32,954 nucleotides of DNA from Chlamydiales bacterium (GTDB lineage: Bacteria > Chlamydiota > Chlamydiia > Chlamydiales > JACRBE01), in the NCBI GenBank assembly GCA_016213235.1, contig JACRBE010000044.1:1-32954 (forward strand), read 5' to 3'. Numbering within the stretch: position 1 is the first letter of the stretch; each line of letters opens with the position of its first letter. The notes under the pieces were generated by a model that saw only the letters and a list, made by a program, of their open reading frames with translations, ran no database searches and was not told where the DNA came from. Below are positions 1,446 through 27,584 of this stretch, piece by piece. A program made the position numbers and the translations under genes.

Positions 1446-1910
1446 CTATTTAAACGGTTTTGAAAAATCAACAATAAGATGAAAAACATCTGCTATTACA
1501 ATACCTAGAAAAGCAAACAGAATATAGCCTTTATATTGCCTATAAAAGGTAAGAAGATTGGTAGTAGATGGTAATGCCCGGTAAATGAGATAAAACACAA
1601 GTAACATAAGGAAGGCAATCCATACAAGTCTTGTGATGGTGCCAAGCAAAATTACATGTGAGATACCACGGTGTTTAAATACTTTTGCGTAAAGGCGAAA
1701 AGGAAGTGAGAGTATTCCTCGCAACGAAAAGATCTTGATTTTATCAGCGACGTCCATATCTGGGCTCATAAATAGAGTTCCAATGATAAAAGAAGATGAG
1801 CAAATAATAATTTGGTTGTTGGGTAGATGAAAATAGGGTCCAAGAAGAAGATAAACAAGAGGCAATCCAATGAGCAGATTAACAATAGTATGCGTTTTAT
1901 ATTGTGCCAC
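1446..1910 (-). CDS. DUF2227-type putative metal-binding membrane protein (metal-dependent hydrolase-like)
   Basis: Motifs KTH, SPDMD, KHRGISH and ADVFHLIVD, with four hydrophobic segments. The GTG at 1910 (VAQYKTH) fits the family N-terminus better than the ATG at 1928. Overlaps the stop of the upstream gene. Confidence 0.75.
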   Translation of the reverse strand: MAQYKTHTIVNLLIGLPLVYLLLGPYFHLPNNQIIICSSSFIIGTLFMSPDMDVADKIKIFSLRGILSLPFRLYAKVFKHRGISHVILLGTITRLVWIAFLMLLVFYLIYRALPSTTNLLTFYRQYKGYILFAFLGIVIADVFHLIVDFSKPFK

Positions 1911-4026
1911 TAACTTGTTTTTCCTCATTCAAAGGTAATAAAAAAGGATCATATGTTGTTTGAATGACAAGACGACTTTCCCATTCATAAATGCTTTGAT
2001 GGATGATTTGGCTAAAATCGACGTATTCTTGGGTATGTTCAAATTTTAATAAATATCCAATGCATGAAATATCATGAGTAGTAATATAAGAAGAGGTGAG
2101 TTGTTCAGCAAAAGGAGAATCTTCTATTTTTTTTACAATGAAATCTTTGAAAGTTGGATTGATTGCTCCTAGCATTAATATGAAGTAAAAGTCATCTATG
2201 TCTGTTTCTAGAAAGTAAGAACAATCATTGTAATCATGATGCAGGGCGTGGTTAAACATCAAAAACATGGTTTTTAATGTTTTTGGAGGTAGTAGGCTTT
2301 GCATATAAATAGGCGTAATGGAATAGAAGAAATTTTTAAGTAGAAAATCGTTATGCAACTGATGTTTTTTTACTAGTTGATGCAGTTGTTTAAAGACTTC
2401 GCTTTGTTTGGAAATCATACCACCGTTATAATCCCTAAGCTCCCCAAACATTTCCATTAAAGTGGAATAGACTTTTTTCCGAGCTTCAAACAAATCAAGA
2501 GAATAATCCTTCCTCAAAAATTGGTTTTTGCTAAGTAATACCTCAAAAACATTGGCTTCTTTTGGATGTTTTTTTCTTAGTTCACCAACTATTTTAGTAT
2601 CTAAATTATCAAAATAAATAGAAGGAGAAGAGTGAATGGAAAAAATGGTTTTTAAAGGAATAGACCCTGGTTTTAATAGTCGCAGTAGAACAACAGTAAA
2701 GGAAATCATCTTATCTGTTTGTTTGTGAAAAGATATCATGATTTGAGGAATATCTTGAACGTATTTTAATTGCGTTGACAAGGTAAGAATATTTCGGAGC
2801 ACTTCTTCTTCATTGCGAGGCATAAAAACAGGACTAATCATGCTTTCTATGCCATTTTTCAACTCAAAAGGAAGCTTGTTCTTTAGTGTTTTAACCTCTT
2901 TTATATCAAATAAAGAACGATCTTGTTTAGCAACTTCTAAATATAAGATCCTAATACGATCAGACCCTCTTCTATCAATAATAGAATACTCTTTAATCAG
3001 TTCAAGCTCTGGAAGACAAGAGCGTATCGCATCCAGGATGTGTTTTTCTTCAAATAGCTCCGTCTCTCTAAGCAGGTTAATGCCAATAATAATACCAAGA
3101 ATCTGGTGACCTTTATCAGAAGACTGGATAGTAGATTTTAATATTTTAAAACTAAGATGTCTTTTATAAGGATCTAAAAAAACAGTATTATTTAGTGTTT
3201 TTCTAAACAGATACATATAAGCAGCAATTCTAGTAATATGTTTAGGATCCCGTAAAGCAGTAAAAGTTTCTTTAAAGAGATTGATAAAATGCTGTAGTTC
3301 ATTAAAAACATCTCGTTCAAACACCTGTGGTTTTGCATCATGCAAAGAGGCCACTTGTTCAATAACATGGTTGATTTTTTTCTCGCCAAGTATTTTCAAG
3401 ATGGCATGGTGCATTTGGTCAAAGGTATTAAGATCAAAATCTTTCGATGGTCTATCAAGCAAGGAGGCGATGTTTTCTTTAATAATTGAATTTTTTTGAT
3501 CAATCGTAAGAGGTTTTAGAGAAACAATGGTACGCGCATGCTCGACTGCCATGATGTTCAATTTAATTTCTCTTGCAACATTATCGATATTGGCTTTTAC
3601 CTGTTTTAAGTTTTTCTCGCATTCTACTCGCAGTAATAATTCATGTACAAAATAGCTAGGAGAACTATCAATTTCAAATTCAAATACAAGAGAATTTACA
3701 TTGACAATAGGCAATTGCTTGCCTGGAATAAGCCATCTACTGCAAATGTCAGAAATAAAACGACCAGCACCATGTGTATATTGAGAATGACAGATAACTG
3801 TAATAGCAACAATATAAGGAGGTTTGTCTGTAAAGGTATAATGTAGCAAAGGTAAAGAACTACTGAACAATTGAAGAAACGCTATATCAGAGATAGTCTG
3901 TTCTATTTCTTTGGAAAAAAGCTCGGCGATTTGCAATTCTAAAGAATGTAGGTATAATTTAAATGCATAGGAAGCACCATCGGGCATTTGAAAGCTTGTC
4001 TTTATCTTTACTTGATGCTTTTGCAT
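1897..4026 (-). CDS. Conserved Chlamydiota-type hypothetical cytoplasmic protein, possibly tandem ACT-like domains
   Basis: 709-aa ORF with no signal peptide. Conserved-looking blocks are PVFMPRNEEEVLRNILTLS and RDYNGGMISKQ; repeated beta-alpha-beta-beta-alpha patterns are visible. Confidence 0.6.
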   Translation of the reverse strand: MQKHQVKIKTSFQMPDGASYAFKLYLHSLELQIAELFSKEIEQTISDIAFLQLFSSSLPLLHYTFTDKPPYIVAITVICHSQYTHGAGRFISDICSRWLIPGKQLPIVNVNSLVFEFEIDSSPSYFVHELLLRVECEKNLKQVKANIDNVAREIKLNIMAVEHARTIVSLKPLTIDQKNSIIKENIASLLDRPSKDFDLNTFDQMHHAILKILGEKKINHVIEQVASLHDAKPQVFERDVFNELQHFINLFKETFTALRDPKHITRIAAYMYLFRKTLNNTVFLDPYKRHLSFKILKSTIQSSDKGHQILGIIIGINLLRETELFEEKHILDAIRSCLPELELIKEYSIIDRRGSDRIRILYLEVAKQDRSLFDIKEVKTLKNKLPFELKNGIESMISPVFMPRNEEEVLRNILTLSTQLKYVQDIPQIMISFHKQTDKMISFTVVLLRLLKPGSIPLKTIFSIHSSPSIYFDNLDTKIVGELRKKHPKEANVFEVLLSKNQFLRKDYSLDLFEARKKVYSTLMEMFGELRDYNGGMISKQSEVFKQLHQLVKKHQLHNDFLLKNFFYSITPIYMQSLLPPKTLKTMFLMFNHALHHDYNDCSYFLETDIDDFYFILMLGAINPTFKDFIVKKIEDSPFAEQLTSSYITTHDISCIGYLLKFEHTQEYVDFSQIIHQSIYEWESRLVIQTTYDPFLLPLNEEKQVSGTI

Positions 4027-4126: not shown

Positions 4127-5728
4127 CTAGTCGCTCTGTGGAAAAACAAGGCCTTGAATATGAAACCCTCCGACTGGATAAATTTCTAAGTTCTGCAGAT
4201 GCGGTTGTCTGAGGTAGGTAGAATTCCAGTGATATAAAATGGTAAAGGGCATTTCTTCCGCAAGCACTTTTTCAGCTTCCTCTAAAAGGGCAAATCTCTC
4301 TTCCCTGTTTTCATAGAAAACGGAATCTTTTATCAAGGTATTATATTTTTTGTTGTACCATCCTCCATAGTTTTTAGGGTTATCTACGTGTATAAAGCGC
4401 TCTAAGATATTCATCTGGTCAGGATATTGTGCTACCCACCTGGACATGGCGATTTGATAGTCCCGTATTACCAGGTTATTCATAAAAACCTTATATTCAA
4501 ATGATTTTAGTTGAACATTTACACCAAGTACTTTTCTCCATTGCTCTTGTATGGCTTGTGCTATTTTAGATGAATCATCTGTTTTAGAGTGCATATAAGT
4601 TAAAGTGCCAAGTTCATCTAGGCTAATGCCAAGTTCCTTTAATCCAATATCAAGATGATATTTTGCATTTTCTACATCATTATCTTCAAAGAGATGATAA
4701 GACTTCCCATCTTTTAAAGCAGGAGGGACAAAATCAAGCCCTATTGGTTCATTGAGTTGGGTGATATTATCTACGATTTCTTGTCTATTAATAGCTAAGG
4801 CAAATGCTTTTCGAATGTTTTTATTATGAAAAGGGAAGACGTTCACATTAAAAAAACAAACAGTTGAGGCAGCTGTGGGTGTTGTTTTGATTAAATTTTT
4901 TTCTCTTAAGTCAGGAATGGAATCAAACGGTATGGAAGTGTAGGGAAGTCCAATTAAATCTAGTTGCTTATTTTCAAACATATGCAGGGCTGTATTTTCA
5001 CTGTCAATCACACTAATAATAATTTTTTCTAATTGAATGTTTTGTTCATTCCAATAAAAAGGATTCTTTTTCAAGATGATTTCAGAGCCTCGTTTCCAAG
5101 ACTCTATTTGAAAGGCGCCATTAGTAGTAAATAGTGGTGAGATCTGCTCTGCCCACGATGTGTTGCTACATGCAATTTGTTGATTGACCGGGTAAAAAAC
5201 ACAAAAACTAATTAAATCTAAAAAATAGGGAGTTGGATGCTCTAACTCCACTTGAAAGGTAGTTGCATTTAGTGCATAAATGCCAAGCGCATCCATAGGG
5301 AGCAATCCCCGTTTTACTTTTTTTGCATTCTTAATGGGGTAGAGTAGATGAGCATTAGGACATGGAAAATCAGGCGTTAACATATCTTTCCATGTTTTTT
5401 CAAAATCATATGCTGTTACAAGATCCCCATTACTCCATTTGGACTCTTTTAGATGAAACGTATACACCTTTTTATCACTAGAGAGCTCATATGACTCTGC
5501 AATTGCGGGTTCTACCCCCTTTGGAGAGATGGTAAATAGCCCTTCATATAATAAAAAATGAACGGCAGAGGAGATGTAGTCGGCATTTTTTCTTGGGTCT
5601 AGCGTAGAGGGGTCTTGAGTAAAATTAAGATAAATCTCTCTCTTATCTAGAAAGTGATGCTCTGGTTTTTGACATCCTAATAAAAAACAAAGAAAGATGC
5701 TAAAAAAACAATAGAATATATTCTTCAT
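4127..5728 (-). CDS. oppA: Oligopeptide ABC transporter substrate-binding lipoprotein (SBP family 5)
   Basis: Lipobox LLGC, DPSTLDP, LYEGL, YTFHLKESKWSNGDLVTAYDF, NIRKAFALAINRQEI, and W-x-AQYPD. Confidence 0.93.
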   Translation of the reverse strand: MKNIFYCFFSIFLCFLLGCQKPEHHFLDKREIYLNFTQDPSTLDPRKNADYISSAVHFLLYEGLFTISPKGVEPAIAESYELSSDKKVYTFHLKESKWSNGDLVTAYDFEKTWKDMLTPDFPCPNAHLLYPIKNAKKVKRGLLPMDALGIYALNATTFQVELEHPTPYFLDLISFCVFYPVNQQIACSNTSWAEQISPLFTTNGAFQIESWKRGSEIILKKNPFYWNEQNIQLEKIIISVIDSENTALHMFENKQLDLIGLPYTSIPFDSIPDLREKNLIKTTPTAASTVCFFNVNVFPFHNKNIRKAFALAINRQEIVDNITQLNEPIGLDFVPPALKDGKSYHLFEDNDVENAKYHLDIGLKELGISLDELGTLTYMHSKTDDSSKIAQAIQEQWRKVLGVNVQLKSFEYKVFMNNLVIRDYQIAMSRWVAQYPDQMNILERFIHVDNPKNYGGWYNKKYNTLIKDSVFYENREERFALLEEAEKVLAEEMPFTILYHWNSTYLRQPHLQNLEIYPVGGFHIQGLVFPQSD

Positions 5729-5779: not shown

Positions 5780-7891
5780 TTAGACGAGAGAGAACGGCCC
5801 TTGTTCTTGTTTTAAGCGATAACTAATAAGATAACAGTCTGATCCTATTGTTTTTAATGAGCGATCACTAGTCGGCGAGACGATGCTATCATTATAGGAA
5901 GTCAAGGTAGCTTTTTCCTTATGATGATAAACGTAGTGTCCTCCCTGTATCGTTGTTCCAATTTGACAGCCAAATCCAATGGGTTCATAAGTGAAATCTT
6001 GGATCTTATTTGGATCGAGTTCGCCATCATCTTCTACTGTTCCGTGATAGATATGCAATACAACAGGATCAAAGATATCGGTTAGCTCGCGCTTTGTTTG
6101 GCGCGCAAGGCCGGCAAATAATTTAAGTAGGCAAACAAGTTCTTCTGGAGGCGTGGTATCTTCATCTAAATAAAAATATTTTTTTATGAAAGATGCGTTG
6201 CTTTTTATAGTTTTTCTTCTATCTACCGATTCTTGTAGAGATAATTCCATTCTATATTCATCAAAGCAGGTCTCGTCGATTGTTGCTTGGAGCAAAGAGG
6301 GACTATTTGGAGCGGCAAATAGGTAGGGCAGAGCAGATTCTTTTGTGGCTTGTTCATGTGTTATTTGCAAACTATTTGTGTGATATTTGAATACTAAGTC
6401 TTTGCGGTCTGCTTGTTTGATTAGTCCTTTGTACTCCATATCATCGAGTACGTAGCTTTTTAGTGTATCACTATCTTTCATTTTTTTAGATACATGCACT
6501 GTTTTCTTCGTAGGATCAAAAATGTATTCTATATCATGTTTCTGTTTGATGACTTGAAGACCTAAGATGGGTGATAGATTCAATCGATCAATAACTAAGG
6601 TAATAAATTCATGTGCGTCTTGTTGAGCGCCTACCCTATATTGATATCTGGTAAGATTATCTGTTTTAATATCACTGAATATTAGCTTAATATCCTTAAC
6701 TAGTGGATTAGCGGTAGCTACTGGGAAAAAGACTTTAATATATTTTCCAAGAATGGTGGCATTAAAAGGGGTTTTATCAAAAAGTTTGATAATGGCATCA
6801 AAAGCAGAATCAATAGATCTTCTATTGGTACGTATATCTGGAGTATTAATATTATCCATTAAACCCGGTATACTCCATAAAATACGCTTTATGTTTTGCT
6901 CATAAGACTGATCCATCTTATCCGATTCCATGACAACTCTTCTTAGTTCTAATAAACAAGAACTAAGAGCTTCATTTTGAAAATGAACAATATGAGATTG
7001 CATCATTTTAAAGATGTCTTTATTAACACATCGATCTAATGTTGGGATGCTTTTTTGTTTTGCAAGATAAGCTAAGGTAAATAAGCTACCGGAAAATTCA
7101 TATAAACACGTGATTAATTTTTTTTGCTGTTGTAATAAATGATAGCGATCTTTTTCATTCAGGGTGGTGGTGGTATCATCTTGTATGGTAAAATAACCAT
7201 GTAGTGTTTTGATGGTATCAAGAGAATGTTGATAAGATTCTGTGGCGCTTGTTATCGCAGCTGTTATTTGCTTATCTGAAAAGGTTGGCAAATCATCAGA
7301 TATGGTATGCCAAATCCCTGTTAATGATGTTGATAATTGATCCAATTGATCTGGATAACTGGATTGCATGGTAAGAAGCCTTTGATGAACGGCGTCCAGT
7401 CTAAACAGCAATTGCATCGAAGTATTGGCAAAACAAGTAGTTCTGTCCGGATTAGAAAGACCAAAACAGGTAGTTACATTTCTTGATCGAGATTGTGATG
7501 GAGTAGTTTCGGTTGATTTTATCGATTTAGAAGGGGGAGAAGCTGGAGGCTTTTTAGTATGGCTGGATAGGGTTTGAGGCTCTTTTGGAAGAGCTTTCGG
7601 AGATGGCGCAGGATCTTCTACGATAGGGGAGGGTGGTGATTCAAAGAAATTATCATCGTTTGTCTTACAGAAAAGAATAGATTGTACAATTTCTACAATA
7701 CACTCTGAAATGGCTCGAACAACACCTTCGATATAAAGACATATGCAATCTATGTAAGAGATGTCCTTGTCTTGTTGTGTAGACTGCAGCGCAGCTATTG
7801 CACTAGGAATTGGAATCACAGCAGGAGAGGGATCTTGAGGGATTAAAGGATTGTCTGTAGGAAAAGATGTTATCTTATTTAGTGCTTCCAT
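5780..7891 (-). CDS. Ubiquitin-specific protease (USP, peptidase C19)-like deubiquitinase, candidate secreted effector, copy A
   Basis: Cys box GLSNPDRTTCFANTSMQLL (C153), QQDAHEF (423-429), PPEELVCLLKLF, His box QIGTTIQGGHY (H652), YNDS (N667-D668), terminal CYLISYR. The N-terminus is Pro/Ser-rich. Confidence 0.85.
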   Translation of the reverse strand: MEALNKITSFPTDNPLIPQDPSPAVIPIPSAIAALQSTQQDKDISYIDCICLYIEGVVRAISECIVEIVQSILFCKTNDDNFFESPPSPIVEDPAPSPKALPKEPQTLSSHTKKPPASPPSKSIKSTETTPSQSRSRNVTTCFGLSNPDRTTCFANTSMQLLFRLDAVHQRLLTMQSSYPDQLDQLSTSLTGIWHTISDDLPTFSDKQITAAITSATESYQHSLDTIKTLHGYFTIQDDTTTTLNEKDRYHLLQQQKKLITCLYEFSGSLFTLAYLAKQKSIPTLDRCVNKDIFKMMQSHIVHFQNEALSSCLLELRRVVMESDKMDQSYEQNIKRILWSIPGLMDNINTPDIRTNRRSIDSAFDAIIKLFDKTPFNATILGKYIKVFFPVATANPLVKDIKLIFSDIKTDNLTRYQYRVGAQQDAHEFITLVIDRLNLSPILGLQVIKQKHDIEYIFDPTKKTVHVSKKMKDSDTLKSYVLDDMEYKGLIKQADRKDLVFKYHTNSLQITHEQATKESALPYLFAAPNSPSLLQATIDETCFDEYRMELSLQESVDRRKTIKSNASFIKKYFYLDEDTTPPEELVCLLKLFAGLARQTKRELTDIFDPVVLHIYHGTVEDDGELDPNKIQDFTYEPIGFGCQIGTTIQGGHYVYHHKEKATLTSYNDSIVSPTSDRSLKTIGSDCYLISYRLKQEQGPFSLV

Positions 7892-7894
7892 GCT

Positions 7895-10294
7895 TTATTC
7901 GTCTTTTGTAGTTATAGTATAGCTAGTAATGTAAGTCTTATTTTCAATACTACGCTCTATCGTCGGATTGTCTGAATAGGTCCTATCGTCTTTTTTATGC
8001 AAAGAAGTGTGAGAATCATCAAATAAAGCAATCATATCATCTGCCCTTTCAAATGCTCGGTAATGACCACTATCAAGGACTCCTTTTTGTACAACAAAAG
8101 TTTTTGGAGTAAGTACAAGTGTGATAAAATGGCTTTCATCTAATTCCTCTCCCTGTGCTGGTAAGTCCCCATGATATATACGTAGTTCAACAGGATCTAA
8201 TATGCCCGTTAGTGTTCTTTTGTTTTGTCGTTCCAGTACCACTTGTTGGGAGTTGTCCACTGTGAAATTAATACACTCGTCCGGTGCAACAGCGCTCGTT
8301 TCAAATTTTAATATGCAGTGAATTGGTACATCAATTCTTCCAAGTCTTATGTTTTGTATCAGATCGTCGCGAATGTGGTTTTTTAACACACTCAATGGAA
8401 TATTAGGATGATTAGGATGAATATAAATAGTGATGGTAGGAGGCTTGTCATCGGAGATAGATGATATGGATAAAGAATATGTTTCTTCTTTTTTCACATT
8501 GAGAAATAAACCATAGATAGCAAGTGTTTCAGTTGGAATAGGTACATCTTTAGGGAGATATAATATTTGCTTATTATAAGATGCCCTAGTGGTGACTCGG
8601 TGAAATTGCCCTGCTGCTGTTGTAACATCATCTCTTTCTATCGATCCATGAGAATCTTTGTATTCTTGCGCGGCACCGTTGGTAAACTGATAAGGTTCAG
8701 GATGATTTTCGATTGCTGTTTTTAATGTATCTTGTAATTTCTGTGGTTCATTGTCTGTGTTTAACAGTAAAATATTTCGAGTCGCTGTTTTAGGATCTTG
8801 ACGGACGATTGTAGGGTCATAATAAGAAGTCCCATACTCCATACAAGCATCATCGTCATCGTCGCACTCTTCAAAATCAAGGTTATAGCTTAGTGGTAGA
8901 TCTATGACTCCCAAACATTTTTTTTCCACCAGATCCTCTTCGATAATTTTTTTTAGCGCATCCAAAGAAATATCAGAGTGATCTTTAGGGAAACGAACGA
9001 TAATAGAGGTTTTTTTTAACGCAGCAGGTGGTGTAGTTGGTATTAATAAAGAGTATTTTATATCATCTCTTCGTTTCAAAGATCCAAACCCAAAAGCAGA
9101 AACAAGATCAAGACGATTTAATATTTCAGATAAAAACTGTTGAGCATCATATTGTTGTCCGACACGGTAACTAGAAGTAAATGGGGATTCTTGTATTCCT
9201 CTAAAAAGATGTAGTGTTGCAGTGTTTGAAAAAGCGCTCTTTAAAAGGGGGGCTAAGAAACGAGCAGTAATGGGGTGAGCTCTAGCAATTCGAGATAAGG
9301 CGTCGTCTTGTTGTGATTGGTCTCCATTTAAATAATCAAAAAAGCCAGGAATAGCCCAAAATGCTTGTTGCATTTTTCTTTCATAATTACGATTAAGGAT
9401 CTGTTGTTCCATGGAGAGGGTTTTTAATTCCAAAAAGGCAGAGCAAAAATCAATGAGTTTCAAATCTTGTATAACTGTTGCAATGGACCCAGTAATGTTG
9501 TCTATAAAAGCAGGATTCCTAAATGATGCAGTAGTATCATCATCTTCGTGTTGACAAGCAAGATAACTTAAAGTAAGTAGCTTACCGGATAAATGATATA
9601 AGTCGTTGATCAGCTCATTTTGTAGTTGAAGAAAGGCAAGTTCTTTATTGCGGTGAATAACCATATGTCCATCATCATCGATAGTAAAGCACTCTCTTAT
9701 CTGATCAATCACTGCCTTGCATTTGTCTTTATTGCTGGTGCAAAGAGTGATTACAGCATTCACATCGTCATGCCCTGCATCTTGTATTGGATTTAACTCT
9801 AAATCGTCTAATAACTGAGATACTTGCAAGAGCTTATCGTTTAGTTCTTTTCGTTTTTCTTCTGTTTTTTCTACGAACACATCGGATACAAATAATAGTT
9901 GCAGACAAGAGTTGGCAAAACAGGTGTTGTGCATGTTAGATAATCCAAAACGATCTGGCTGCGTTGCACCTTTTGTGGAAAAAGATCCATGTAAATAAGA
10001 TAAATCTAACACGTCTGGATTTACATTGATACGAGCAGGTGGAGTAAAAGGACTATGCATTTTTTTGCTTTGTGGATGAAGAATAGACATCGCAATTTCA
10101 TAAATACACTCTAAAAGTGTCTTTACGAACTGTTCAATAGGTTCAAAAGTTCTATTAATAAGCGGTTTTAGAGGTCTATTTTGTCTTTGATGGGATGGTA
10201 GTAAGGCTGTCGCTGGATTAGGAGAATTGGTTACCGGTTTTGCACCACCAGGTGGAGGGTGTCGAGTAGATGTAATTTTTGGAACGCTATTCAT
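7895..10294 (-). CDS. Ubiquitin-specific protease (USP, peptidase C19)-like deubiquitinase, candidate secreted effector, copy B
   Basis: Cys box GLSNMHNTCFANSCLQLL (C125), QQYDAQQFL (380-388), His box QKGVLDSGHY (H744), LFDDS (D759-D760), terminal TYITSY. Pro-rich N-terminus; paralogous to copy A. Confidence 0.85.
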   Translation of the reverse strand: MNSVPKITSTRHPPPGGAKPVTNSPNPATALLPSHQRQNRPLKPLINRTFEPIEQFVKTLLECIYEIAMSILHPQSKKMHSPFTPPARINVNPDVLDLSYLHGSFSTKGATQPDRFGLSNMHNTCFANSCLQLLFVSDVFVEKTEEKRKELNDKLLQVSQLLDDLELNPIQDAGHDDVNAVITLCTSNKDKCKAVIDQIRECFTIDDDGHMVIHRNKELAFLQLQNELINDLYHLSGKLLTLSYLACQHEDDDTTASFRNPAFIDNITGSIATVIQDLKLIDFCSAFLELKTLSMEQQILNRNYERKMQQAFWAIPGFFDYLNGDQSQQDDALSRIARAHPITARFLAPLLKSAFSNTATLHLFRGIQESPFTSSYRVGQQYDAQQFLSEILNRLDLVSAFGFGSLKRRDDIKYSLLIPTTPPAALKKTSIIVRFPKDHSDISLDALKKIIEEDLVEKKCLGVIDLPLSYNLDFEECDDDDDACMEYGTSYYDPTIVRQDPKTATRNILLLNTDNEPQKLQDTLKTAIENHPEPYQFTNGAAQEYKDSHGSIERDDVTTAAGQFHRVTTRASYNKQILYLPKDVPIPTETLAIYGLFLNVKKEETYSLSISSISDDKPPTITIYIHPNHPNIPLSVLKNHIRDDLIQNIRLGRIDVPIHCILKFETSAVAPDECINFTVDNSQQVVLERQNKRTLTGILDPVELRIYHGDLPAQGEELDESHFITLVLTPKTFVVQKGVLDSGHYRAFERADDMIALFDDSHTSLHKKDDRTYSDNPTIERSIENKTYITSYTITTKDE
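8264..9073 (-). repeat. Diverged internal protein duplication (~80 aa, two copies) in USP copy B
   Basis: aa 408-487 (nt 8834-9073) aligns with aa 601-677 (nt 8264-8494): YSLLI/YSLSI, DHSDISLDALKKIIEEDL/NHPNIPLSVLKNHIRDDL, LGVIDLP/LGRIDVP, LDFE/LKFE, DACM/DECI. Confidence 0.75.
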
Positions 10295-10368: not shown

Positions 10369-11982
10369 TTAGTCTATTCTAATATAGTTTAAGTGAACAG
10401 ACCCAATCGGTGATATATAAAAATTTTTAATATTACTTTTTGATATGTAAGAATAATTGAAATGATAAATACATGTAATAGGAGATTCATTAATTATTAT
10501 TTGCTCAGCCTGCTGTGCGTAGTACATTCGCTGGTTTAGCCGCTGTTCATTGTCTAATAAATAAAGAATTTCTTTGTATTCATTGTTTTCCCAGTCCGGA
10601 TAGTTTTTAGGATTATCCTTTGCTCGAAAACGATCTAAGATATCCATAGGGTCGTTATATTGCGACATCCAAATCGCTTGTGCTACTTGATAATTCTTGT
10701 TTACTAAATGATCTATAAAAATTTTAAAATCATAGCCAATAAGTTGAACATCTACGCCAAGAGACTTTCTCCACTGTTCTTGTATAGCTTGTGCTATTTT
10801 CGTAAAATAATGAGTCTTAAGATAAGTATAGGTAAGAGTAGGAAAGTCTTTTTTGCTCATTTGTAGTTCTTCCAGCCCCTTTTCAAATAGTTTCTTTGCT
10901 TTTTCCTCATTATAATCTTCATATAGAGGGGTGTTATTCCCGCTTTTTAAAATAGGTGGAATGATTTGCTGTGCAACGACTTCATTTAGTTGTGTAATAT
11001 TTTCTACGATCTCTTTGCGATTAATACATAAAGAGAGCGCCTTTCTGATGCAGATGTTGTTTAGTGGATGTTTTTTGGTGTTAAATGCGCAGAATAGTGT
11101 AGAGCTAATAGGAACTGTTTTTAGATTTTCTTTGAAAGAAACTGATTCTTTTGCCTCTAGAGGAAGCTGAGAAAAGCTCGCTCCCACAAGGTCTATTTCT
11201 CCCTTTTCAAACATCTCAAGCGCAACAAGGTCATCAGATACAAAAGAAATGGCGATTTGATCGATATGAATGTTGTCTTTATCATAGTAATAAGGGTTTT
11301 TTATCAGTTTTGCATCAGCATTCTTTTTCAGATATTGCAACAAGAAGGGACCACAGCTAATCAGATTTTCCATGGATGGATCGATGCTAAAAGTGGATCG
11401 GTAGGAGGGGTGTATGGGAAAGTAGGTGCAAAAGGATGTCAATTCAAGAAAATATGGAGTTGGTTTATCTAGTGTTACGATGAGCGTTTTTTCATCTGGG
11501 CATTCAATACCAACGTCATCTAAAGCAACAAGCCCTTTTTTTGCAAAGAAAGCATGTTTAATTGGATATAGCAAATTAGCATTGGGAGCTGGGAAAGAGG
11601 GATCTAAGATGTTTTTCCAAGATGCAGCAAAATCATAGGAGGTAATAGGATCCCCATTAGACCAATAAGAATCTTTTAAAGTGAAGGTATAACAAAGAAG
11701 ATCGGGAGAAATATCGATCTGTTTGGCAAGGCCGAGTTCACAACTAGAAGAAGGAGTGATTTTTGTTAGTCCTTCAAACATCATAAAAATAAAAGTAGAA
11801 GAGATAATATCCCCAGATTTTCTTGGATCTAATGTTGGAGGGCATTGTGTGAAATTTAATCGAAGGGTTTTTTCTGTGCCTCTTTTTTCTTCTATGGAGG
11901 AACAAGCAACAGTTAGAAAAAAAAGAAGGAGTCCTAATATGTGCAAGCTTTGCTTCATAAAAAAAAGGGCCTCTTTTATCAT
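10369..11982 (-). CDS. oppA: Oligopeptide ABC transporter substrate-binding lipoprotein (SBP family 5), second paralogue
   Basis: Lipobox TVAC, PPTLDPR, MFEGL, YTFTLKDSYWSNGDPITSYDF, IRKALSLCINRKEI. The true start may be the second Met at 11958. Confidence 0.93.
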   Translation of the reverse strand: MIKEALFFMKQSLHILGLLLFFLTVACSSIEEKRGTEKTLRLNFTQCPPTLDPRKSGDIISSTFIFMMFEGLTKITPSSSCELGLAKQIDISPDLLCYTFTLKDSYWSNGDPITSYDFAASWKNILDPSFPAPNANLLYPIKHAFFAKKGLVALDDVGIECPDEKTLIVTLDKPTPYFLELTSFCTYFPIHPSYRSTFSIDPSMENLISCGPFLLQYLKKNADAKLIKNPYYYDKDNIHIDQIAISFVSDDLVALEMFEKGEIDLVGASFSQLPLEAKESVSFKENLKTVPISSTLFCAFNTKKHPLNNICIRKALSLCINRKEIVENITQLNEVVAQQIIPPILKSGNNTPLYEDYNEEKAKKLFEKGLEELQMSKKDFPTLTYTYLKTHYFTKIAQAIQEQWRKSLGVDVQLIGYDFKIFIDHLVNKNYQVAQAIWMSQYNDPMDILDRFRAKDNPKNYPDWENNEYKEILYLLDNEQRLNQRMYYAQQAEQIIINESPITCIYHFNYSYISKSNIKNFYISPIGSVHLNYIRID

Positions 11983-13651: not shown

Positions 13652-14482
13652 ATGAAAAAGAAACTGCAAGTGGTTGTTTTTGCTGTTTTAACAATGCTTT
13701 TTATACAGGTGCAGGCAGATGTTGGTATCAACAAGATTCAAATCGTAGCATTATCAAATGCTCCGACAAATGAGGCTGTCGTGCTCCAAATTATTTTCCC
13801 TTCTAATGAGGATTTTGTCAGAAAATACCCAGTTAATTCTCAAATCCGATTAGAGACTTTTTCTTTAGGAATACAATCTCGAATCTATCCGCAAATTGCT
13901 GATTTAAGGAATGATAAAGATGGGCAATGTGTTCATGTTGTAATAGATGATTTGCCTTATTTTAAAGTGACATTAAATAGTGAAGATTCTGCAAATGCCA
14001 ATTTCTCTCTTTATAGAAAAATGCTAACCTTTGACATACCTTATAAACTAGAACCAGGAAAACACATCATGAGAGCTTTTCCCGTACTCTCTTATGGGGA
14101 AAGTATCAAACTATCAACTTCATTTGATGTGCATGAATTTTACTATAGAAAAAAAGACAGCTCTTTTACGTTTGATGCAAAGACTCCTCTTCTTACGTAT
14201 AATGAACCTCAAGGGAACTTCGCTATAAAAAAAGATGGCCCCGTCTTGCTTGATTTTTATGTTAGTAGCGCAAAACTCTCTCCAAGAGATTATAAAGTTT
14301 TAGCTAGCGTTGATAATAAGGTGATAATGAAAATAACCGATTGGCAACCTTATTTAATTTATGGACTGGATGCTGGAGAACATATGATTGAGCTCTCTTT
14401 GATCGATGAGGCAGATCAAGTAGTAAAATCACCATTTAATCCAATTCGAAGAAAAATTAGCGTCTCTAATGCTAAAAAATAA
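13652..14482 (+). CDS. Exported hypothetical protein with two related beta-rich halves
   Basis: Signal peptide ending VQA-D. Motifs GQCVHVVIDD, PGKHIMRAFP, SYGESIK, LTYNEPQG and GLDAGEHMIELSLID. Confidence 0.65.
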   Translation: MKKKLQVVVFAVLTMLFIQVQADVGINKIQIVALSNAPTNEAVVLQIIFPSNEDFVRKYPVNSQIRLETFSLGIQSRIYPQIADLRNDKDGQCVHVVIDDLPYFKVTLNSEDSANANFSLYRKMLTFDIPYKLEPGKHIMRAFPVLSYGESIKLSTSFDVHEFYYRKKDSSFTFDAKTPLLTYNEPQGNFAIKKDGPVLLDFYVSSAKLSPRDYKVLASVDNKVIMKITDWQPYLIYGLDAGEHMIELSLIDEADQVVKSPFNPIRRKISVSNAKK

Positions 14483-15395
14483 TAGGACCGTTTTTTCTCT
14501 CTTGAATTAACTCTGCTATTGTTTTTTCATAGGTAGGTACTAGCATAGGGTGGTTTCTCTCAAGCCACTCTTTTAACTCCGAGCAAGACTCATGTAGCTT
14601 GTATTCAAAGAAATCGAAATTTGCAAAAGATTCATTAAATCGAAGAGATCCTAAATCAAGCTGGAATGGCCTATCATTTAAAAATCCAAAATTGCTTCCA
14701 AAGCTAATATCATGATCTTCAATATTTAAACTAATCCGATAAGCAAAAAAGCGCAAGACTTGTTTAATTGCATCTTGTGCTTTTTCCACATTGTTATCGA
14801 TCATCAGTTGATCGATATAGGGATATGTTAAAATACCACGTTTTTGCAAAATGAATTCATAATCATCTACATTAACTGGATGAGCAATCCCTATTTTATC
14901 GACAAGAGTGAGGGTTTGATGAAGATAATCTGTTTTATTTAAATGGAGATAAACAATACCGTTAAACTCTTTAAAATATTCGCTTGCAATCATATAGCTG
15001 TTAAATGTTGAATCAAAAGTCCTCTTTTTTTTAGCAATTTTTACCTCTCTTTTCTCGTCTAGTTTTGCTGGAAGTGGAAGCGGGGACATCCAAATAGGAA
15101 TTCTCATTCGTTTGTGTTTGGTAACTTTTAGTACATATTGGCTGTCTTTGCTTAAAAAAGCGTAATTCTGCCCACCTGTTTTCATTAGAGTATATGGCTG
15201 ATCAAGCAGATGCTTGATTTGTTTTAGATCCTTATCACAAGGTTTTGGGACTTCCCATCTCACATCGTAAGGGTGAGGGTCTTGTATGTTTAGAAGAGTA
15301 AATCCTTGTGTAATGGAGTGGCAAAATCGATCTACTCTCCAAAATACAAGACAAAAAATAGCAAGCTCAAGAATTCGTCGTATATATTTTTTCAT
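14472..15395 (-). CDS. Membrane-anchored protein kinase-like fold protein
   Basis: N-terminal hydrophobic anchor, then in kinase order TGGQNYAF (Gly loop), YVLK (beta3 Lys), FILQKR (hinge), DHD-x5-NFG (catalytic loop) and LDLG (DFG-like). Confidence 0.6.
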   Translation of the reverse strand: MKKYIRRILELAIFCLVFWRVDRFCHSITQGFTLLNIQDPHPYDVRWEVPKPCDKDLKQIKHLLDQPYTLMKTGGQNYAFLSKDSQYVLKVTKHKRMRIPIWMSPLPLPAKLDEKREVKIAKKKRTFDSTFNSYMIASEYFKEFNGIVYLHLNKTDYLHQTLTLVDKIGIAHPVNVDDYEFILQKRGILTYPYIDQLMIDNNVEKAQDAIKQVLRFFAYRISLNIEDHDISFGSNFGFLNDRPFQLDLGSLRFNESFANFDFFEYKLHESCSELKEWLERNHPMLVPTYEKTIAELIQERKNGPIIF

Positions 15396-15602: not shown

Positions 15603-16661
15603 ATGCGCTCCATGGATGCTGATTTTTTGGAAAACCAGAGTATTCCAACATTAATGTCCGGAAGTTTACAGCAACTTGGCCGCTACCAGGGAAAGCAGGA
15701 ACTTGTATTTCAAAGACGTCCGGAGCTTTTAAAAACTCTTAAACACCAAGCTGTTATAGAGAGTGTAGAATCTTCAAACCGTATAGAAGGTGTCATCGTT
15801 CCGGAAAAGAGACTTAAAGAAATTCTAAGCAATCGAGACAAGCCTAAAAATCGCTCGGAAGAAGAAGTCGTTGGATATCGCAATGTGCTAGCTGAAATAC
15901 ATACTAACTACAAGCATATGGAGATTACTCCGGAGAGCATTTGTAAAATGCACAAAAAAATGTTTGATTTAACCAATCGCTCCAAAGGAGTTTGGAAGAA
16001 TAAAGACAATAGCATTGAAGAACAATTACCTGATGGTACTTGGATTACCCGTTTTTTGCCGGTTTCAGCAAAAGAAACTCCATACTATATGGCAGAATTA
16101 TGTAAACGTTTTAATCGATTATGGAACGAGCAACGTGTAGATAGGCTTTTTGTGTCTTTAGCTTTTGTATTTGATTTTTTGTGGATCCATCCTTTTTTAG
16201 ATGGTAATGGTAGGCTATCGAGACTTTTGACGGTGCTCTTATTGCATAAAATGGAATACGATATCCCTTGGTTCATTAGCTTAGAACGCTTAATTGAAGA
16301 CACTAAGGAATTTTATTATGATACTCTCAAAGAAGTTTCTCAAGGATGGCATAAATCTCAACATCATTTAGGTCCATGGCTAGGATATCACATAACCTTA
16401 CTTCTTAAATCGTACAGGGAACTAGAAGAAAAAGCCGGAGATGCTATTCTTGAAAAAGGGGAAAAAACCACTTGGGTTTTGGAGGCTATTAAAAGCCTTC
16501 CAACAGAATTTCGCGTAGGAGATCTTATTCGCCTCTGTCCGGGAGTGAGCCGCCCTATGATTCGTGTAGTTCTTGAAAATCTGCGTAAAGAAGGCAAGCT
16601 CACTATAAAAGGCTTAACCAGATCTGCCAGATGGAGAAAAGTGAAGGAAAGCGATTTTTAA
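15603..16661 (+). CDS. Fic family AMPylase (class II, internal inhibitory helix) with a C-terminal winged-helix-like domain
   Basis: Canonical HPFLDGNGRLSR motif, inhibitory SNRIEG motif, and C-terminal FRVGDLIRLCPGVSRPMIRVVLENLRKEGKL. Confidence 0.92.
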   Translation: MRSMDADFLENQSIPTLMSGSLQQLGRYQGKQELVFQRRPELLKTLKHQAVIESVESSNRIEGVIVPEKRLKEILSNRDKPKNRSEEEVVGYRNVLAEIHTNYKHMEITPESICKMHKKMFDLTNRSKGVWKNKDNSIEEQLPDGTWITRFLPVSAKETPYYMAELCKRFNRLWNEQRVDRLFVSLAFVFDFLWIHPFLDGNGRLSRLLTVLLLHKMEYDIPWFISLERLIEDTKEFYYDTLKEVSQGWHKSQHHLGPWLGYHITLLLKSYRELEEKAGDAILEKGEKTTWVLEAIKSLPTEFRVGDLIRLCPGVSRPMIRVVLENLRKEGKLTIKGLTRSARWRKVKESDF

Positions 16662-22490: not shown

Positions 22491-23231
22491 CTACCTTGCA
22501 GTAGCATCGCCTGTTTGTGCAAGTGAGCGCAATATGGAATCGAGCTGTTGCCAAAAAGCTTGCTGCGTTTGACTGGCTTGTGCAATATGATCACGATCTT
22601 GCCCCATCAAATTTTCTACTGTTTTGATTTCGTAGGCATTATCTCCTGAAATGTCACCATCTTCCAGCGTTCCGAAAAAGGTGCCAACGGATGGGAAAAC
22701 GTTGCTGATACCTTCCATGATTGCTTTACCAATATCACCAAAAGCAGGTGATGCTACTTTACAAAGCCCGCCAAGTGTTCCACCGGCTAAAGCAAACCAG
22801 GCTTTTTTTACATGAGATTCTTTTTGCGCACGGAAAGAATCTTCTTGAGCAGGTCTCATCTTTTGATACATATTAGAATTTTGCACGCGCAAAGTGGTTA
22901 GTATTTCATTTAATTTTTGCATCAGAGCGCAAATGGTAAATAGAGAGTTTGCAGCTTTTTGTGCTAGCTTTTGCACCTCTTGCTCTTCAATATCTTTTTC
23001 GCCGTCGGCAGATGATCGTTTTTCCCCTTTTACAAAATGGGATACCTCGTCTAAAAAACTGGAAGATGCTCCATGTTTTACAAGAATGTCTGCAAAAACA
23101 TCCAGTTCTGTATTTGCCTCACGACAAATAACATCAATTTGATCTCTTATTGATGATTCATCTACGCTAGCGATCTGATTAAGATCAGATCGCGTAATTG
23201 AAATAGGACGATCATAAGTTGTTGATATCAT
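22491..23231 (-). CDS. Putative type III secretion minor hydrophobic translocator (CopD/YopD-like)
   Basis: Last gene after a class II chaperone and a CopB-like gene. Has a coiled-coil region, one Gly/Ala-rich hydrophobic segment (WFALAGGTLGGLCKVA) and an amphipathic C-terminal helix. Confidence 0.65.
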   Translation of the reverse strand: MISTTYDRPISITRSDLNQIASVDESSIRDQIDVICREANTELDVFADILVKHGASSSFLDEVSHFVKGEKRSSADGEKDIEEQEVQKLAQKAANSLFTICALMQKLNEILTTLRVQNSNMYQKMRPAQEDSFRAQKESHVKKAWFALAGGTLGGLCKVASPAFGDIGKAIMEGISNVFPSVGTFFGTLEDGDISGDNAYEIKTVENLMGQDRDHIAQASQTQQAFWQQLDSILRSLAQTGDATAR

Positions 23232-23252
23232 ATTTTTTTCTCCTTAAGTTAT

Positions 23253-24176
23253 TTACCCGGCAATGCCTGCTCCGGCAAATCCCTGTGTTACAAATTTACC
23301 TAGTTCATTTTGATGCTGCGCAATTAAAGCAGCGATTTTTTCTGTTTCTTCAAAGCTTTTTACTGCGCTTGTAACAGCTTTGCCCTCTTTTTCCAAATCA
23401 GATCGAAACAGAGATAGTCGCCCTTCAATATCAGATTGTTTTGCATCTAGCATTGACATTTTATAGTGCTGATAAGCAATTCCCATCTCTGTTACCCCTT
23501 GGCCTACATTAACTAAAGAAGAGGCGATGGTTGCGACAAGTTTAGGTAGTTGATTTGCAATAGTTGCAAAGCTTGCAATACCAGCGCCAATACCAAGTGC
23601 AGCACTTGTAAGGGCAAGAGCTCCAACAACGGTGGGATTTACCCCGACTTCACCAAGAACAAAAGCGGAAATGCCCGCAACTCCCGATGCGATAAGGAGT
23701 CCGCCTGCAATAGAGCCGGCTCCTGTTGCAATCAACGCTCCCCCAATAACAATAGAGACAGTAGATAAAATACAAGTTGCTACCTGTTGTAAAAAATCCC
23801 AAAAAGTAGATTCTTTCTTCTCTTCCATTTGTTCCAGTCTCAGCTCTGTTGCTTTTTTATTTTCCATAATGACTTGATTTACCGTGTACTCATAAAAACC
23901 CTGCTTTTCTTTTAAAGAAAATTGCTGGATGTTTGTGAGTTGATCGACGAGTCCTTTTAGCAATTTTCCCATGTTGAGTTTTTGCATCTCTTCCTCATAT
24001 AATGCAGGAGGAGTAAGCTCTATTTTATCCGGCTGATGCTTTGCTAACATGAACCTACTATCTTGTGCTATAGATAGAGAAGAACTAAAATGGGAAGATC
24101 TAAAACCGTCGCCCTTTTCCATAGGTACATATGTTGTAGAAAAATCAGGCATGAAAGGCTGCTCTATTTTAGTCAT
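23253..24176 (-). CDS. Putative type III secretion major hydrophobic translocator (CopB/YopB-like)
   Basis: Overlaps the lcrH-like gene. Has a chaperone-binding-like IELTPP motif, a coiled coil, a long Gly/Ala-rich hydrophobic region (aa ~130-225) and a C-terminal coiled coil. Confidence 0.75.
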   Translation of the reverse strand: MTKIEQPFMPDFSTTYVPMEKGDGFRSSHFSSSLSIAQDSRFMLAKHQPDKIELTPPALYEEEMQKLNMGKLLKGLVDQLTNIQQFSLKEKQGFYEYTVNQVIMENKKATELRLEQMEEKKESTFWDFLQQVATCILSTVSIVIGGALIATGAGSIAGGLLIASGVAGISAFVLGEVGVNPTVVGALALTSAALGIGAGIASFATIANQLPKLVATIASSLVNVGQGVTEMGIAYQHYKMSMLDAKQSDIEGRLSLFRSDLEKEGKAVTSAVKSFEETEKIAALIAQHQNELGKFVTQGFAGAGIAG

Positions 24177-24639
24177 GTTTCCCTCCCCAAATATGAAGCA
24201 AACTATTAATTTTGGTTTTTAAGGATTCCGTTGCCGCCTGATAGCGCTCTTGTGCCATACGTAGCGCCTTTACTGCCTCTTTTGGCTCATTTAACGAAAT
24301 CAAACATTCTGCTGCATAATAATGTGGCTGTGGATCATTTGGCAGCAAAAGCGCTGACATGCTCCAGCTGGTCAAGGCCTCTTTATATAGATGTTGCATT
24401 TGAAGCGCAGCACCAAGTCCCATCCAATGTTTTGCATCATATGGTTTTGTTTGTATTAATTTTCTAAATAATTGCTCTGCTTGTGGTAGATCTCCCATAT
24501 TATACAAACTATAGGCAAGAGAATAAAGCGTCATGCAATCATTATCAGAGCAAGTTTCCTTGCCTTGCAGGCTCTCTTGATTAACAACACGCTGCCCAAT
24601 TATTTCTAGCGCTTTTTCTATTTCCTTTTCAGAAATCAT
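24169..24639 (-). CDS. lcrH: SycD/LcrH class II type III secretion chaperone (TPR)
   Basis: LYSLAYSLYNMG, HWMGLGAALQ and PNDPQPHYYAAECL; 156 aa. Confidence 0.9.
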   Translation of the reverse strand: MISEKEIEKALEIIGQRVVNQESLQGKETCSDNDCMTLYSLAYSLYNMGDLPQAEQLFRKLIQTKPYDAKHWMGLGAALQMQHLYKEALTSWSMSALLLPNDPQPHYYAAECLISLNEPKEAVKALRMAQERYQAATESLKTKINSLLHIWGGKHD

Positions 24640-24645
24640 CGCTAC

Positions 24646-25176
24646 CTACTTGCTATCTGTTTTTTTGATCCAATACCCGGTAGACTCACGTATAGATTTC
24701 CCAATTTGGACGAGTATCTCTACAATCTGTTTTTGAGCCATGGTCATCGTTTCAAATTCTCCCATGCTTGTCTGTATGCTACCTTGACGTTTGGTCTCTA
24801 AATTTCTGAGTTTTGTTTCTGTCCACTCGAGTTCTTTTTTCGAAACATGGGAAAGATCATTACTAGCAGGGAAAGGGTTTTCTTCTTCTTTAATCAGTCC
24901 CGGATATAAATAGGCGCATTTATTCCACACCTCTCTAAACTCTGCGATATCACTTTCTAAGTGACGCAGATCAACATGGTCTCCATCTTGCTCTTCTTTT
25001 GCTTTCCTAATTTCGCTTAAAACATTTAAGATAATATATAAATCGCAAGAGATGTCATCGATAGAGCTTGTTGCTTTTTCTGTTTTTTGTAAAAAAAACT
25101 GGTCCTGTAGCATAGCGAGTCCTGCTGACTCTCTACCAGGATGAACATGAAAATCTGGATCTCTAGTTATAGACAT
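24646..25176 (-). CDS. Hydrophilic helical protein, first gene of the translocator operon (possible tip/hydrophilic translocator)
   Basis: Ends 6 nt before lcrH and has a long C-terminal amphipathic coiled-coil helix. The function is inferred from position only. Confidence 0.5.
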   Translation of the reverse strand: MSITRDPDFHVHPGRESAGLAMLQDQFFLQKTEKATSSIDDISCDLYIILNVLSEIRKAKEEQDGDHVDLRHLESDIAEFREVWNKCAYLYPGLIKEEENPFPASNDLSHVSKKELEWTETKLRNLETKRQGSIQTSMGEFETMTMAQKQIVEILVQIGKSIRESTGYWIKKTDSK

Positions 25177-26900: not shown

Positions 26901-27584
26901 ATGGGATCAATTAATTTGGTTAGGTTTCCTCACCCTTCATCTTGCGCCGATAGATTATTAGGGGTGACTAGCGATTATTTATGCTTTAATGGAAAAATGG
27001 CAGAGGTGGTGGGTAGCATTGACCTGGCAACAAAGCGTTATTCCGTGCAACTGATCGATAAAACAGCTTCCATGTCAATGATAATAACAGCATGTAAAAT
27101 CATCTCTTACGTGACCATAGTTATTCCTCTCATTGTATTTGCAGTACACTGTATGTTAAGATCGATGTACGATTTTTCATTAGTCTCTACTGATGCTCCG
27201 AAGGGTAATGTTGATCCTGTAGAGGTGGAGAGTGAGTCGGACGCGGAGTCCTTAAATGGGGTAAGGAAAGCATCTGATCAAGATCGTGATGCAGAGGTCT
27301 CACCGAGTGATAGCGGTTCTGTAGAAGATGATTCAGCTTCTGCAAGGGTGGTGTTATCGAGTAATGCTCCAAAGGGTAATGTTGATCCTGTAGAGACGGA
27401 AACGGTAGAGGATGATGAGGTTTTATCGGAAGAGAACAGGGTCAGGAAGTTGGTGAGAGAAGGCAGGACCGCGGAGTTAGTTAGAAAAGGCGAATTTTTC
27501 AGTATAATAAATGATGAGCTTAAGAAGATGGGTTCTAGCTTCAGCGTTTTGGATTTTGTGGGATACTCTCTTAATGGTAGATAG
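26901..27584 (+). CDS. Shorter DUF648-like paralogue with acidic repeats; possibly truncated
   Basis: About 80% identical N-terminus to the 25377 gene, with APKGNVDPVE repeats; lacks the helical C-terminal domain. Confidence 0.65.
   Translation: MGSINLVRFPHPSSCADRLLGVTSDYLCFNGKMAEVVGSIDLATKRYSVQLIDKTASMSMIITACKIISYVTIVIPLIVFAVHCMLRSMYDFSLVSTDAPKGNVDPVEVESESDAESLNGVRKASDQDRDAEVSPSDSGSVEDDSASARVVLSSNAPKGNVDPVETETVEDDEVLSEENRVRKLVREGRTAELVRKGEFFSIINDELKKMGSSFSVLDFVGYSLNGR

Follow-up and report, generated by a model that had tools for sequence, protein, structure and literature searches.

Why would an environmental chlamydia keep two eukaryote-type ubiquitin-specific protease (USP) genes side by side, each with a catalytic region much longer than those of nearly all other chlamydial USPs? 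The question is raised by contig JACRBE010000044.1 of the Chlamydiales assembly GCA_016213235.1, which was analysed over its whole length of 32,954 nucleotides (the window). The two genes, here called A and B, lie on its minus strand. Their extra length is caused by a helical insert behind the catalytic Cys box and, in A, by a duplicated module of the fingers as well. The resulting architecture appears to be new; the chlamydial USP effector as a kind is already known. A and B are probably fast-evolving, type III-secreted and membrane-tethered deubiquitinases (DUBs), whose inserts steer them to their substrates.

A tandem pair of USP genes

The genes and the spacer between them are as follows.

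Gene A, 7895..10294, minus strand: USP-family protease of 799 aa with three inserts, recognised by its open reading frame (ORF), PF00443 and motifs
Gene B, 5780..7891, minus strand: paralogue of A of 703 aa with two inserts, recognised by its ORF, PF00443, a Ubp8 match and the USP fold
A-B spacer, 7892..7894, minus strand: 3 nt; same frame, with one stop codon and one codon between the genes

Gene A is upstream and read first, and gene B follows on the same strand. The initial annotation, made from the letters alone, had described two ORFs 3 nt apart with the USP motifs in order and had named their catalytic residues; the coordinates proved right, as did every residue number. It had also proposed a search with the PF00443 profile, which places both genes over the cut-off of 23.9 bits (B, 37.9 bits, E = 2e-9; A, 34.9 bits, E = 1.6e-8). 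In a search of PDB sequences, B matches yeast Ubp8 (E = 1.5e-6), and A matches the Cys box alone of USP15/USP4 (E = 0.25-1.8), which is weak by itself. A and B share 27% identity over 525 columns (E = 3e-31), with a second matching block around the His box, and are judged from their sequences to be paralogues. No third copy was found in this genome, which is 81% complete, and NCBIfam gave a family for neither protein. In spite of the shared frame, A and B are taken as two genes, because B starts with its own N-terminus homologous to that of A. One contig of run X1, labelled as a groundwater metagenome, covers the junction (7205-8544) with zero differing letters; since X1 may be the source sample, this contig is not independent support.

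The evidence for the fold comes from a model of B, and the thumb-palm-fingers fold of A would follow from homology to B. The AlphaFold2 model of B, built on 5 alignment rows, has a mean predicted local distance difference test score (pLDDT) of 55 and a predicted template modelling score of 0.50. When it was compared with 48,161 chains, the 25 best matches were all of the USP fold, led by USP1 (Z 15.1, root-mean-square deviation 3.9), on which 260 residues were aligned over model positions 142-694, both ends of the core included. Foldseek agrees on the USP fold (E = 1.7e-6). Structure prediction, which had also been suggested at the outset, thus bears out the fold of B, with low confidence around the Cys box (pLDDT <50). 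In a viral structure library, giant-virus USPs were matched at 9-15% identity, and nothing close was found.

Catalytic and recognition residues

The boxes of the two proteins lie at these positions.

Cys box of A, 9890..9946, minus strand: residues 117-135, with Asn120 and catalytic Cys125 at 9920-9922
Cys box of B, 7433..7462, minus strand: residues 144-153, with Asn147 and catalytic Cys153 at 7433-7435; loop one residue longer
Box 2 of A, 9137..9154, minus strand: residues 381-386, QYDAQQ, with Gln386 where the Arg72-reading Glu is expected
Box 2 of B, 6608..6625, minus strand: residues 423-428, QQDAHE, with the canonical Glu428
His box of A, 8015..8068, minus strand: Gly743-His744-Tyr745 through Asp759-Asp760
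His box of B, 5888..5941, minus strand: Gly651-His652-Tyr653 through Asn667-Asp668

The predicted triads are C125/H744/D759-D760 in A and C153/H652/N667-D668 in B, with Asn120 and Asn147, respectively, as the oxyanion residues. The Gln-x-Asp of box 2 is Q381/D383 in A and Q423/D425 in B, and the terminal motifs are YITSY (788) and YLISY (687), respectively. Five long homologues were aligned, namely A, B, a USP of genome G001 and the metagenomic proteins P0003 and P0005. All five share the Cys, the Gln and Asp of box 2, the Gly-His and the Asp that follows the His box, the others being only 22-31% identical to B. The gatekeeper Tyr after the His is present in both proteins of the pair (Tyr745 in A, Tyr653 in B). 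This residue is needed in SnUSP1-3, three active USPs of Simkania negevensis (Boll et al., 2023, PMC10643670; here and below, papers are cited for the sections consulted).

One recognition residue differs between A and B. In USP21 (Glu304) and USP9X (Glu1688), Arg72 of ubiquitin is read by a Glu that stands five positions behind the box-2 Gln and helps to exclude NEDD8 (PMC6462090); it is marked also in PMC10719079. This Glu is kept in B (Glu428), G001, P0003 and P0005, and A has Gln386. In 46 aligned cores, one row of which is a duplicate, this column is Glu in 32, Asp in 5, Gln in 4 and another residue in 5, so that the Glu appears conserved but not family-defining. Because the column varies in this way, Gln386 is a hint, not proof, of altered specificity. 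A and B may diverge in specificity, as was initially proposed, and Gln386 against Glu428 is the sole clue to it.

A helical insert behind the Cys box

The distance from Cys to His is 619 residues in A and 499 in B, versus 177-339 in 35 of 36 other chlamydial domains; in the remaining one, at locus L069, it is 495, with the insertion at another site. Motif parsing of 65 loci, several of them the same gene, gave these 36 domains; the set leans compact, because loci were picked by score and misfits to the pattern were dropped. Neither A nor B therefore has a compact catalytic domain (Cys to His, about 180-340 aa), and the earlier remark that their catalytic regions are over-long is confirmed, the cause having been missed. 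The distance from Cys to box 2, 258 residues in A and 272 in B versus 67-128 in those 17 of 24 domains in which box 2 could be parsed, places much of the excess in one insert.

Insert 1 of A, 9167..9877, minus strand: residues 140-376, from Cys box to box 2; homologous to insert 1 of B
Insert 1 of B, 6638..7390, minus strand: residues 168-418, all-helical in the model

Insert 1, which follows the Cys box and has a predicted four-helix-bundle core, was found outside this genome only in the USP of G001 (837 aa, same genus) and in P0003 (685 aa) and P0005 (605 aa), two unplaced metagenomic proteins among 9 hits in 1.84 billion representatives searched. When the inserts alone were aligned, with Z measured over shuffles, scores were 162 for A-B (Z 21-23), 109 for A-G001 (Z 14-16), 99 for B-P0003 (Z 13-14) and 78 for A-P0005 (Z 6-9), and just 44 for B-P0005 (Z 1.6); comparisons with compact USPs gave Z 5.2 at most. 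In the model of B, residues 161-340 mostly have pLDDT 60-89, and 342-428 fall below 50. The part around 175-315 (model 173-317) drew generic four-helix-bundle matches alone (Z 10-12), and since they are generic, they show arrangement, not function. A homodimer prediction for two copies of B 160-345 scored 0.25 against a mark of 0.42, which speaks neither for nor against a dimer.

A three-row insert profile was run against 401 genomes of the order and, in an overlapping draw, 401 of the phylum. Each draw gave two matching genomes, in both cases this one and G001, from which the profile had been built. Protein searches with A, with alignment A1 and with P0005 returned one protein each. The A1 search missed members of its own alignment, so that blanks of such word-indexed searches are weak. 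Scans of metagenomes with A1 and P0003 gave no confirmed match. In the full-text literature, with most subscription papers outside its scope, neither a description of insert 1 nor an order-wide survey of USPs was found.

Eukaryotic USPs, with catalytic domains of 300-800 aa, commonly have insertions between boxes 1 and 2 and between boxes 4 and 5; they are tolerated at these junctions and can set specificity (PMC6462090). The box 1/2 insertion of USP9X is 39 aa long and disordered, unlike insert 1, which is 236-250 aa long, conserved across five proteins and helical in the model. The SnUSPs have no room for it, because their Cys-to-His distances are just 283, 250 and 263.

A finger module and its duplication in A

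The second element is a small strand-strand-helix-strand module in the fingers of all five long proteins.

Module copy 1 of A, 8837..9019, minus strand: residues 426-486, fingers, between boxes 2 and 3; from repeat test and alignment
Module copy 2 of A with flanks, 8219..8503, minus strand: residues 598-692 (repeat core 616-676), between boxes 4 and 5; in A only
Finger module of B, 6377..6535, minus strand: residues 453-505, strand-strand-helix-strand; single copy, without CxxC

Counterparts of copy 1 were aligned in B, G001, P0003 and P0005, and at the site of copy 2 these four rows have a short loop or a gap. Residues 426-486 and 616-676 of A align with a score of 85-88, whereas 100 shuffled versions of A gave a best internal score of 40 ± 4 and a maximum of 51. 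A module profile from the five homologues recognised copy 2 weakly (E = 0.033) and lost it without the row of A itself, so that the repeat rests on the pairwise test; it is not visible at the DNA level. The CxxC of the fingers is missing from all five long proteins, and it is present in just 1 of the 46 aligned cores. From the alignment and the usual box nomenclature, copy 2 appears to occupy the position of blocking loop 1, next to the cleft for the ubiquitin tail. In known USPs, this loop forms the cleft that binds the tail (PMC6462090).

A model of A 598-692 from 4 rows is beta-beta-alpha-beta-beta (pLDDT 62), with a best structural Z of 4.5 and unrelated small alpha/beta domains in the top rows. 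A ubiquitin-like identity of the module was considered from inspection by eye; the UBL2 insert of USP11 is of that kind (PMC12718135). Among the 48,161 chains there was no match with Z of 5 or more, none of the top 50 was ubiquitin-like, and Foldseek gave none with E of 0.001 or less. The model being mediocre, the idea is dropped rather than disproved. ESM Atlas searches with A 400-690 and 596-692 gave scores below 0.9 throughout, which are leads only.

N-termini and secretion

Both proteins begin with a region unlike the rest of the chain.

N-terminus of A, 9965..10294, minus strand: residues 1-110, a Ser/Thr/Pro/Asn-rich leader (putative type III signal) and an amphipathic helix at about 45-75
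N-terminus of B, 7481..7891, minus strand: residues 1-137, a Pro/Ser-rich leader and an amphipathic helix at 46-74; homologous to that of A

Pro and Ser make up 0.21 of residues 1-140 in A and 0.28 in B versus 0.11 in the rest, in agreement with the Pro/Ser-rich N-termini reported at the start. The Ser/Thr/Pro/Asn fraction of the leaders, 0.60 in A and 0.44 in B, is reached by 6 and 34, respectively, of the 896 ORFs, for which the median is 0.20. An unstructured, Ser/Thr/Pro-rich N-terminus is a common heuristic for a type III signal. The N-terminal helix, which in A has a hydrophobic moment of 0.66 and a top 19-residue hydropathy of just 1.03, aligns across the five long USPs; among the 896 ORFs, no other protein shares the motif below E = 0.4. 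The genome encodes type III components (PF00771, E = 2e-219; PF01514, E = 6e-23) and a protein resembling CopN (E = 1e-31 to CopN in PDB), and the chlamydial assignment follows from the position of the latter beside sctV/sctU-type genes.

The initial annotation had read A and B as a co-transcribed pair of secreted DUBs. The secreted part of this is plausible, given the type III system and the leaders. Co-transcription is plausible from the 3-nt gap, and like divergent specificity it goes beyond what was observed. A promoter scan gave 19 sites, fewer than the 30.4 ± 4.7 expected by chance, and terminators were likewise at or below chance.

The genomic slot and its history

The pair is enclosed by two genes for Opp binding proteins.

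Upstream oppA-like gene, 10369..11982, minus strand: one border of the slot; PF00496, E = 1.5e-73, and synteny
Downstream oppA-like gene, 4127..5728, minus strand: the other border; PF00496, E = 5.2e-70, and synteny

A and B are co-directional with both, at gaps of 74 and 51 nt. The same slot holds one long USP in G001 and two compact USPs in G002, a genome of the same family (485 and 600 aa; Cys to His, 239 and 318). In G003 and G004, the space between the two oppA genes has no ORF that reaches 100 aa, and the second oppA may be another gene, because it is just 36-38% identical to that of the window. Compared with G001, the neighbours are 35-88% identical (OppA, 53-54%), and the USPs are 22-24% identical over about 280-300 residues. 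Measured against the flanking OppA, this divergence looks effector-like.

An unrooted tree of 240 core columns, built without eukaryotic rows, joins A and B with a support of 97, and joins both to P0003 and P0005 with 96. It places G001 elsewhere with weak support (50), and the C-terminal columns of G001 are visibly misaligned. The insert scores are mixed as well, G001 being nearer to A and P0003 nearer to B. The simplest reading would be a tandem duplication of unsettled timing. A recent gene transfer was considered and rejected, since the GC content of A/B (0.37) and their third-position GC content (0.26-0.28) resemble those of the neighbours (0.33-0.40 and 0.27-0.35).

USPs in Chlamydiales and elsewhere

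The initial annotation had implied that USPs are rare in bacteria, and this did not hold for Chlamydiales. PF00443 matches were found in 202 of 301 genomes of the order, this one included (201 over the cut-off); among those of high quality the count is 150 of 230, and the 14 control genomes had none. A genome may have up to 8 matches, often paired. Among the matches listed, same-strand pairs within 5 kb on one contig occur in at least 12 genomes (G014, G049, G061, G079, G107, G122, G153, G174, G176, G209, G212 and G220), and G002 is a thirteenth with a close pair. With SnUSP1-3 already published and pairs in at least 13 other genomes, neither a chlamydial USP nor a USP pair is new. Since two thirds of the sampled genomes of the order carry PF00443, USPs seem to belong to the usual toolkit of environmental chlamydiae. 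A review of 2026 describes the bacterial USPs identified so far as just a few (PMC13720258).

Some further observations were made in the survey. The rows with a PF00443 match all come from families other than f35. The USP at locus L069 (G142:C20:43435-45060) has another, lysine-rich insertion after box 2, in which an internal repeat of about 40 residues is seen by eye. At L049:3938-5371 (G001:C6), a divergent USP-like protein of 477 aa has a long Pro/Ala-rich N-terminus; its His-box half matches PF00443, and its box 2 is not recognised.

Among characterised enzymes, SnUSP1-3 are close in kind to A and B. They belong to the chlamydial USP family, have all catalytic residues and the gatekeeper Tyr, carry N-terminal extensions with hydrophobic stretches, and are presumed to be secreted. 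SnUSP1 and SnUSP2 are fast and promiscuous in linkage, and SnUSP3 reacts with probe and barely cuts chains (PMC10643670). Burkholderia TssM is another bacterial USP-type effector with a remodelled ubiquitin-binding surface; it has lost the fingers and is type II-secreted, whereas A and B have kept and extended the fingers and look type III-secreted (PMC10719079). Eukaryotic USPs (USP9X, CYLD, USP4/11/15, USP25/28; MEROPS C19) have the same thumb-palm-fingers fold and the same order of six boxes. The SnUSP1-3 locus tags are not adjacent, unlike A and B. ChlaDUB1 and ChlaDUB2 of Chlamydia trachomatis belong to clan CE, with a catalytic order other than that of A and B, and their genes stand in tandem as A and B do. 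For Cdu1, a vacuole-anchored role has been described (PMC13720258). PF02902 was not found in the present, 81% complete genome.

What the pair may do

A and B would be cysteine isopeptidases of the USP family (C19), made by an environmental chlamydia. Their export by the type III system would depend on the unstructured Ser/Thr/Pro-rich leader, and the amphipathic helix at 45-75 would tether them to a membrane that faces the host. Their Cys-His-Asn/Asp centre would make a papain-type cut after Gly76 of ubiquitin, and ubiquitin may thereby be stripped off the vacuole or off chosen host proteins. Insert 1, predicted to sit on the thumb outside the catalytic core, would most likely be a docking arm that selects substrate or site. 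B would be the more canonical enzyme and A the more specialised one. Because copy 2 lies at blocking loop 1 and the Glu is lost, A should be slower on chains, more substrate-dependent, or less strict against NEDD8. Several points weigh against this account. In Simkania, sequence similarity failed to predict chain cleavage, and 4 of 12 candidates had no DUB activity (PMC10643670). The model of B falls below pLDDT 50 at 121-155, where the Cys box lies, at 645-651 and at 668-684. Gln stands at the Glu column in 3 further cores of the 46 besides A, and the N-terminal helix of A is too weakly hydrophobic for a transmembrane segment. In addition, the LKRF-type motif of box 4 is degenerate in both proteins (LAIYGLF in A, LVCLLKLF in B).

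This degenerate box 4 and the remodelled fingers of both proteins also suit a different explanation, in which one or both enzymes have been retargeted, either to NEDD8 or another, protist-specific ubiquitin-like modifier or to one substrate that the insert recognises, and would perform poorly as general deubiquitinases, like SnUSP3 or USPL1. SnUSP3 is a precedent for it, and A has Gln386 where Glu304 of USP21 and Glu1688 of USP9X read Arg72 and exclude NEDD8. We consider it unlikely, for B retains Gln423, Asp425, Glu428 and the gatekeeper Tyr, the Glu is kept in G001, P0003 and P0005, and a ubiquitin probe reacts with all three SnUSPs. It is less probable still that B alone is an enzyme and that A is auto-inhibited or a decoy, its duplicated module closing the tail cleft, so that A would bind ubiquitinated targets or need an activator. 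Here the module copy at blocking loop 1, present in A only, is suggestive, that loop being part of the ubiquitin-tail cleft (PMC6462090), as is the lower score of A with a chlamydial USP core profile (62.5 versus 85.1 bits in B). However, A retains Asn120, Cys125, Asp383, His744, Tyr745 and Asp759-Asp760 despite heavy divergence elsewhere, and active USPs can carry large insertions between boxes 4 and 5 (PMC6462090).

The surroundings of the pair suggest another role, in peptide processing for the flanking Opp binding proteins or in some intrabacterial action, since A and B lie co-directionally between the two oppA genes at short gaps and the USPs of G001 and G002 hold the same position. This role is very improbable: the oppA genes of G003 and G004 are adjacent, the occupants of the slot vary in number and type beside conserved neighbours, the 14 control genomes have no PF00443 match, and the leaders are effector-like. 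We would give slightly less credence yet to A and B being one two-domain protein, split in the assembly or joined by read-through of the stop. The shared frame with a single intervening stop would allow it, but the leader and helix of B are homologous to the N-terminus of A, a second assembly, maybe of the same sample, has the same junction, and the homologues are single-domain. Secreted, membrane-tethered DUBs with substrate-steering inserts remain the account that we prefer.

Other features of the window

At 25377-26720 and 26901-27584 (plus strand) lies a tandem pair of paralogues whose N-terminal regions are almost identical; they have a hydrophobic stretch and match DUF648 weakly, under the cut-off. 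The pair has no counterpart at the G001 site, where hemL adjoins the translocator cluster, and its products are likely lineage-specific membrane effectors. The cluster itself, at 22491-25176 (minus strand), is type III translocator-like and 35-50% identical to that of G001; it contains two helical/hydrophobic ORFs (weak SseC match), an LcrH/SycD chaperone over the cut-off and a 176-aa ORF. A Fic-domain gene at 15603-16661 (plus strand; PF02661, E = 2.4e-14) has no equivalent at the syntenic place in G001 and G002. The 307-aa ORF at 14472-15395 (minus strand), without a Pfam or NCBIfam match, is 48-49% identical in G001 and G002; near its C-terminus we see by eye motifs that we take to be kinase-like. 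The 709-aa protein at 1897-4026 (minus strand) has no family match over the cut-off; each of the four relatives of the family keeps it (46-65% identity), together with a second paralogue. At 29309-30784 (plus strand), a small membrane protein and a flotillin-like FloA (NCBIfam, over the cut-off) have no match at the syntenic place in G001.

Implications

With USPs in so much of the order, it seems high time for a survey of the whole family of chlamydial USPs. To our knowledge, the effects of insertions on USP specificity have so far been studied in human enzymes. What sets A apart from B is one duplicated domain next to the ubiquitin-tail cleft, together with one recognition residue, and the pair would offer a compact test of such effects. 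Bacterial DUBs with odd specificity are now laboratory reagents. A bolder and rather doubtful proposal is that the five long proteins form an undescribed USP subfamily, in which the bundle on the thumb is an adaptor for substrate or membrane, and that the module copy and the loss of the Glu have switched A to another modifier or chain type. If this is true, the pair would be a natural experiment in which a new USP specificity has arisen via the relocation of a domain.

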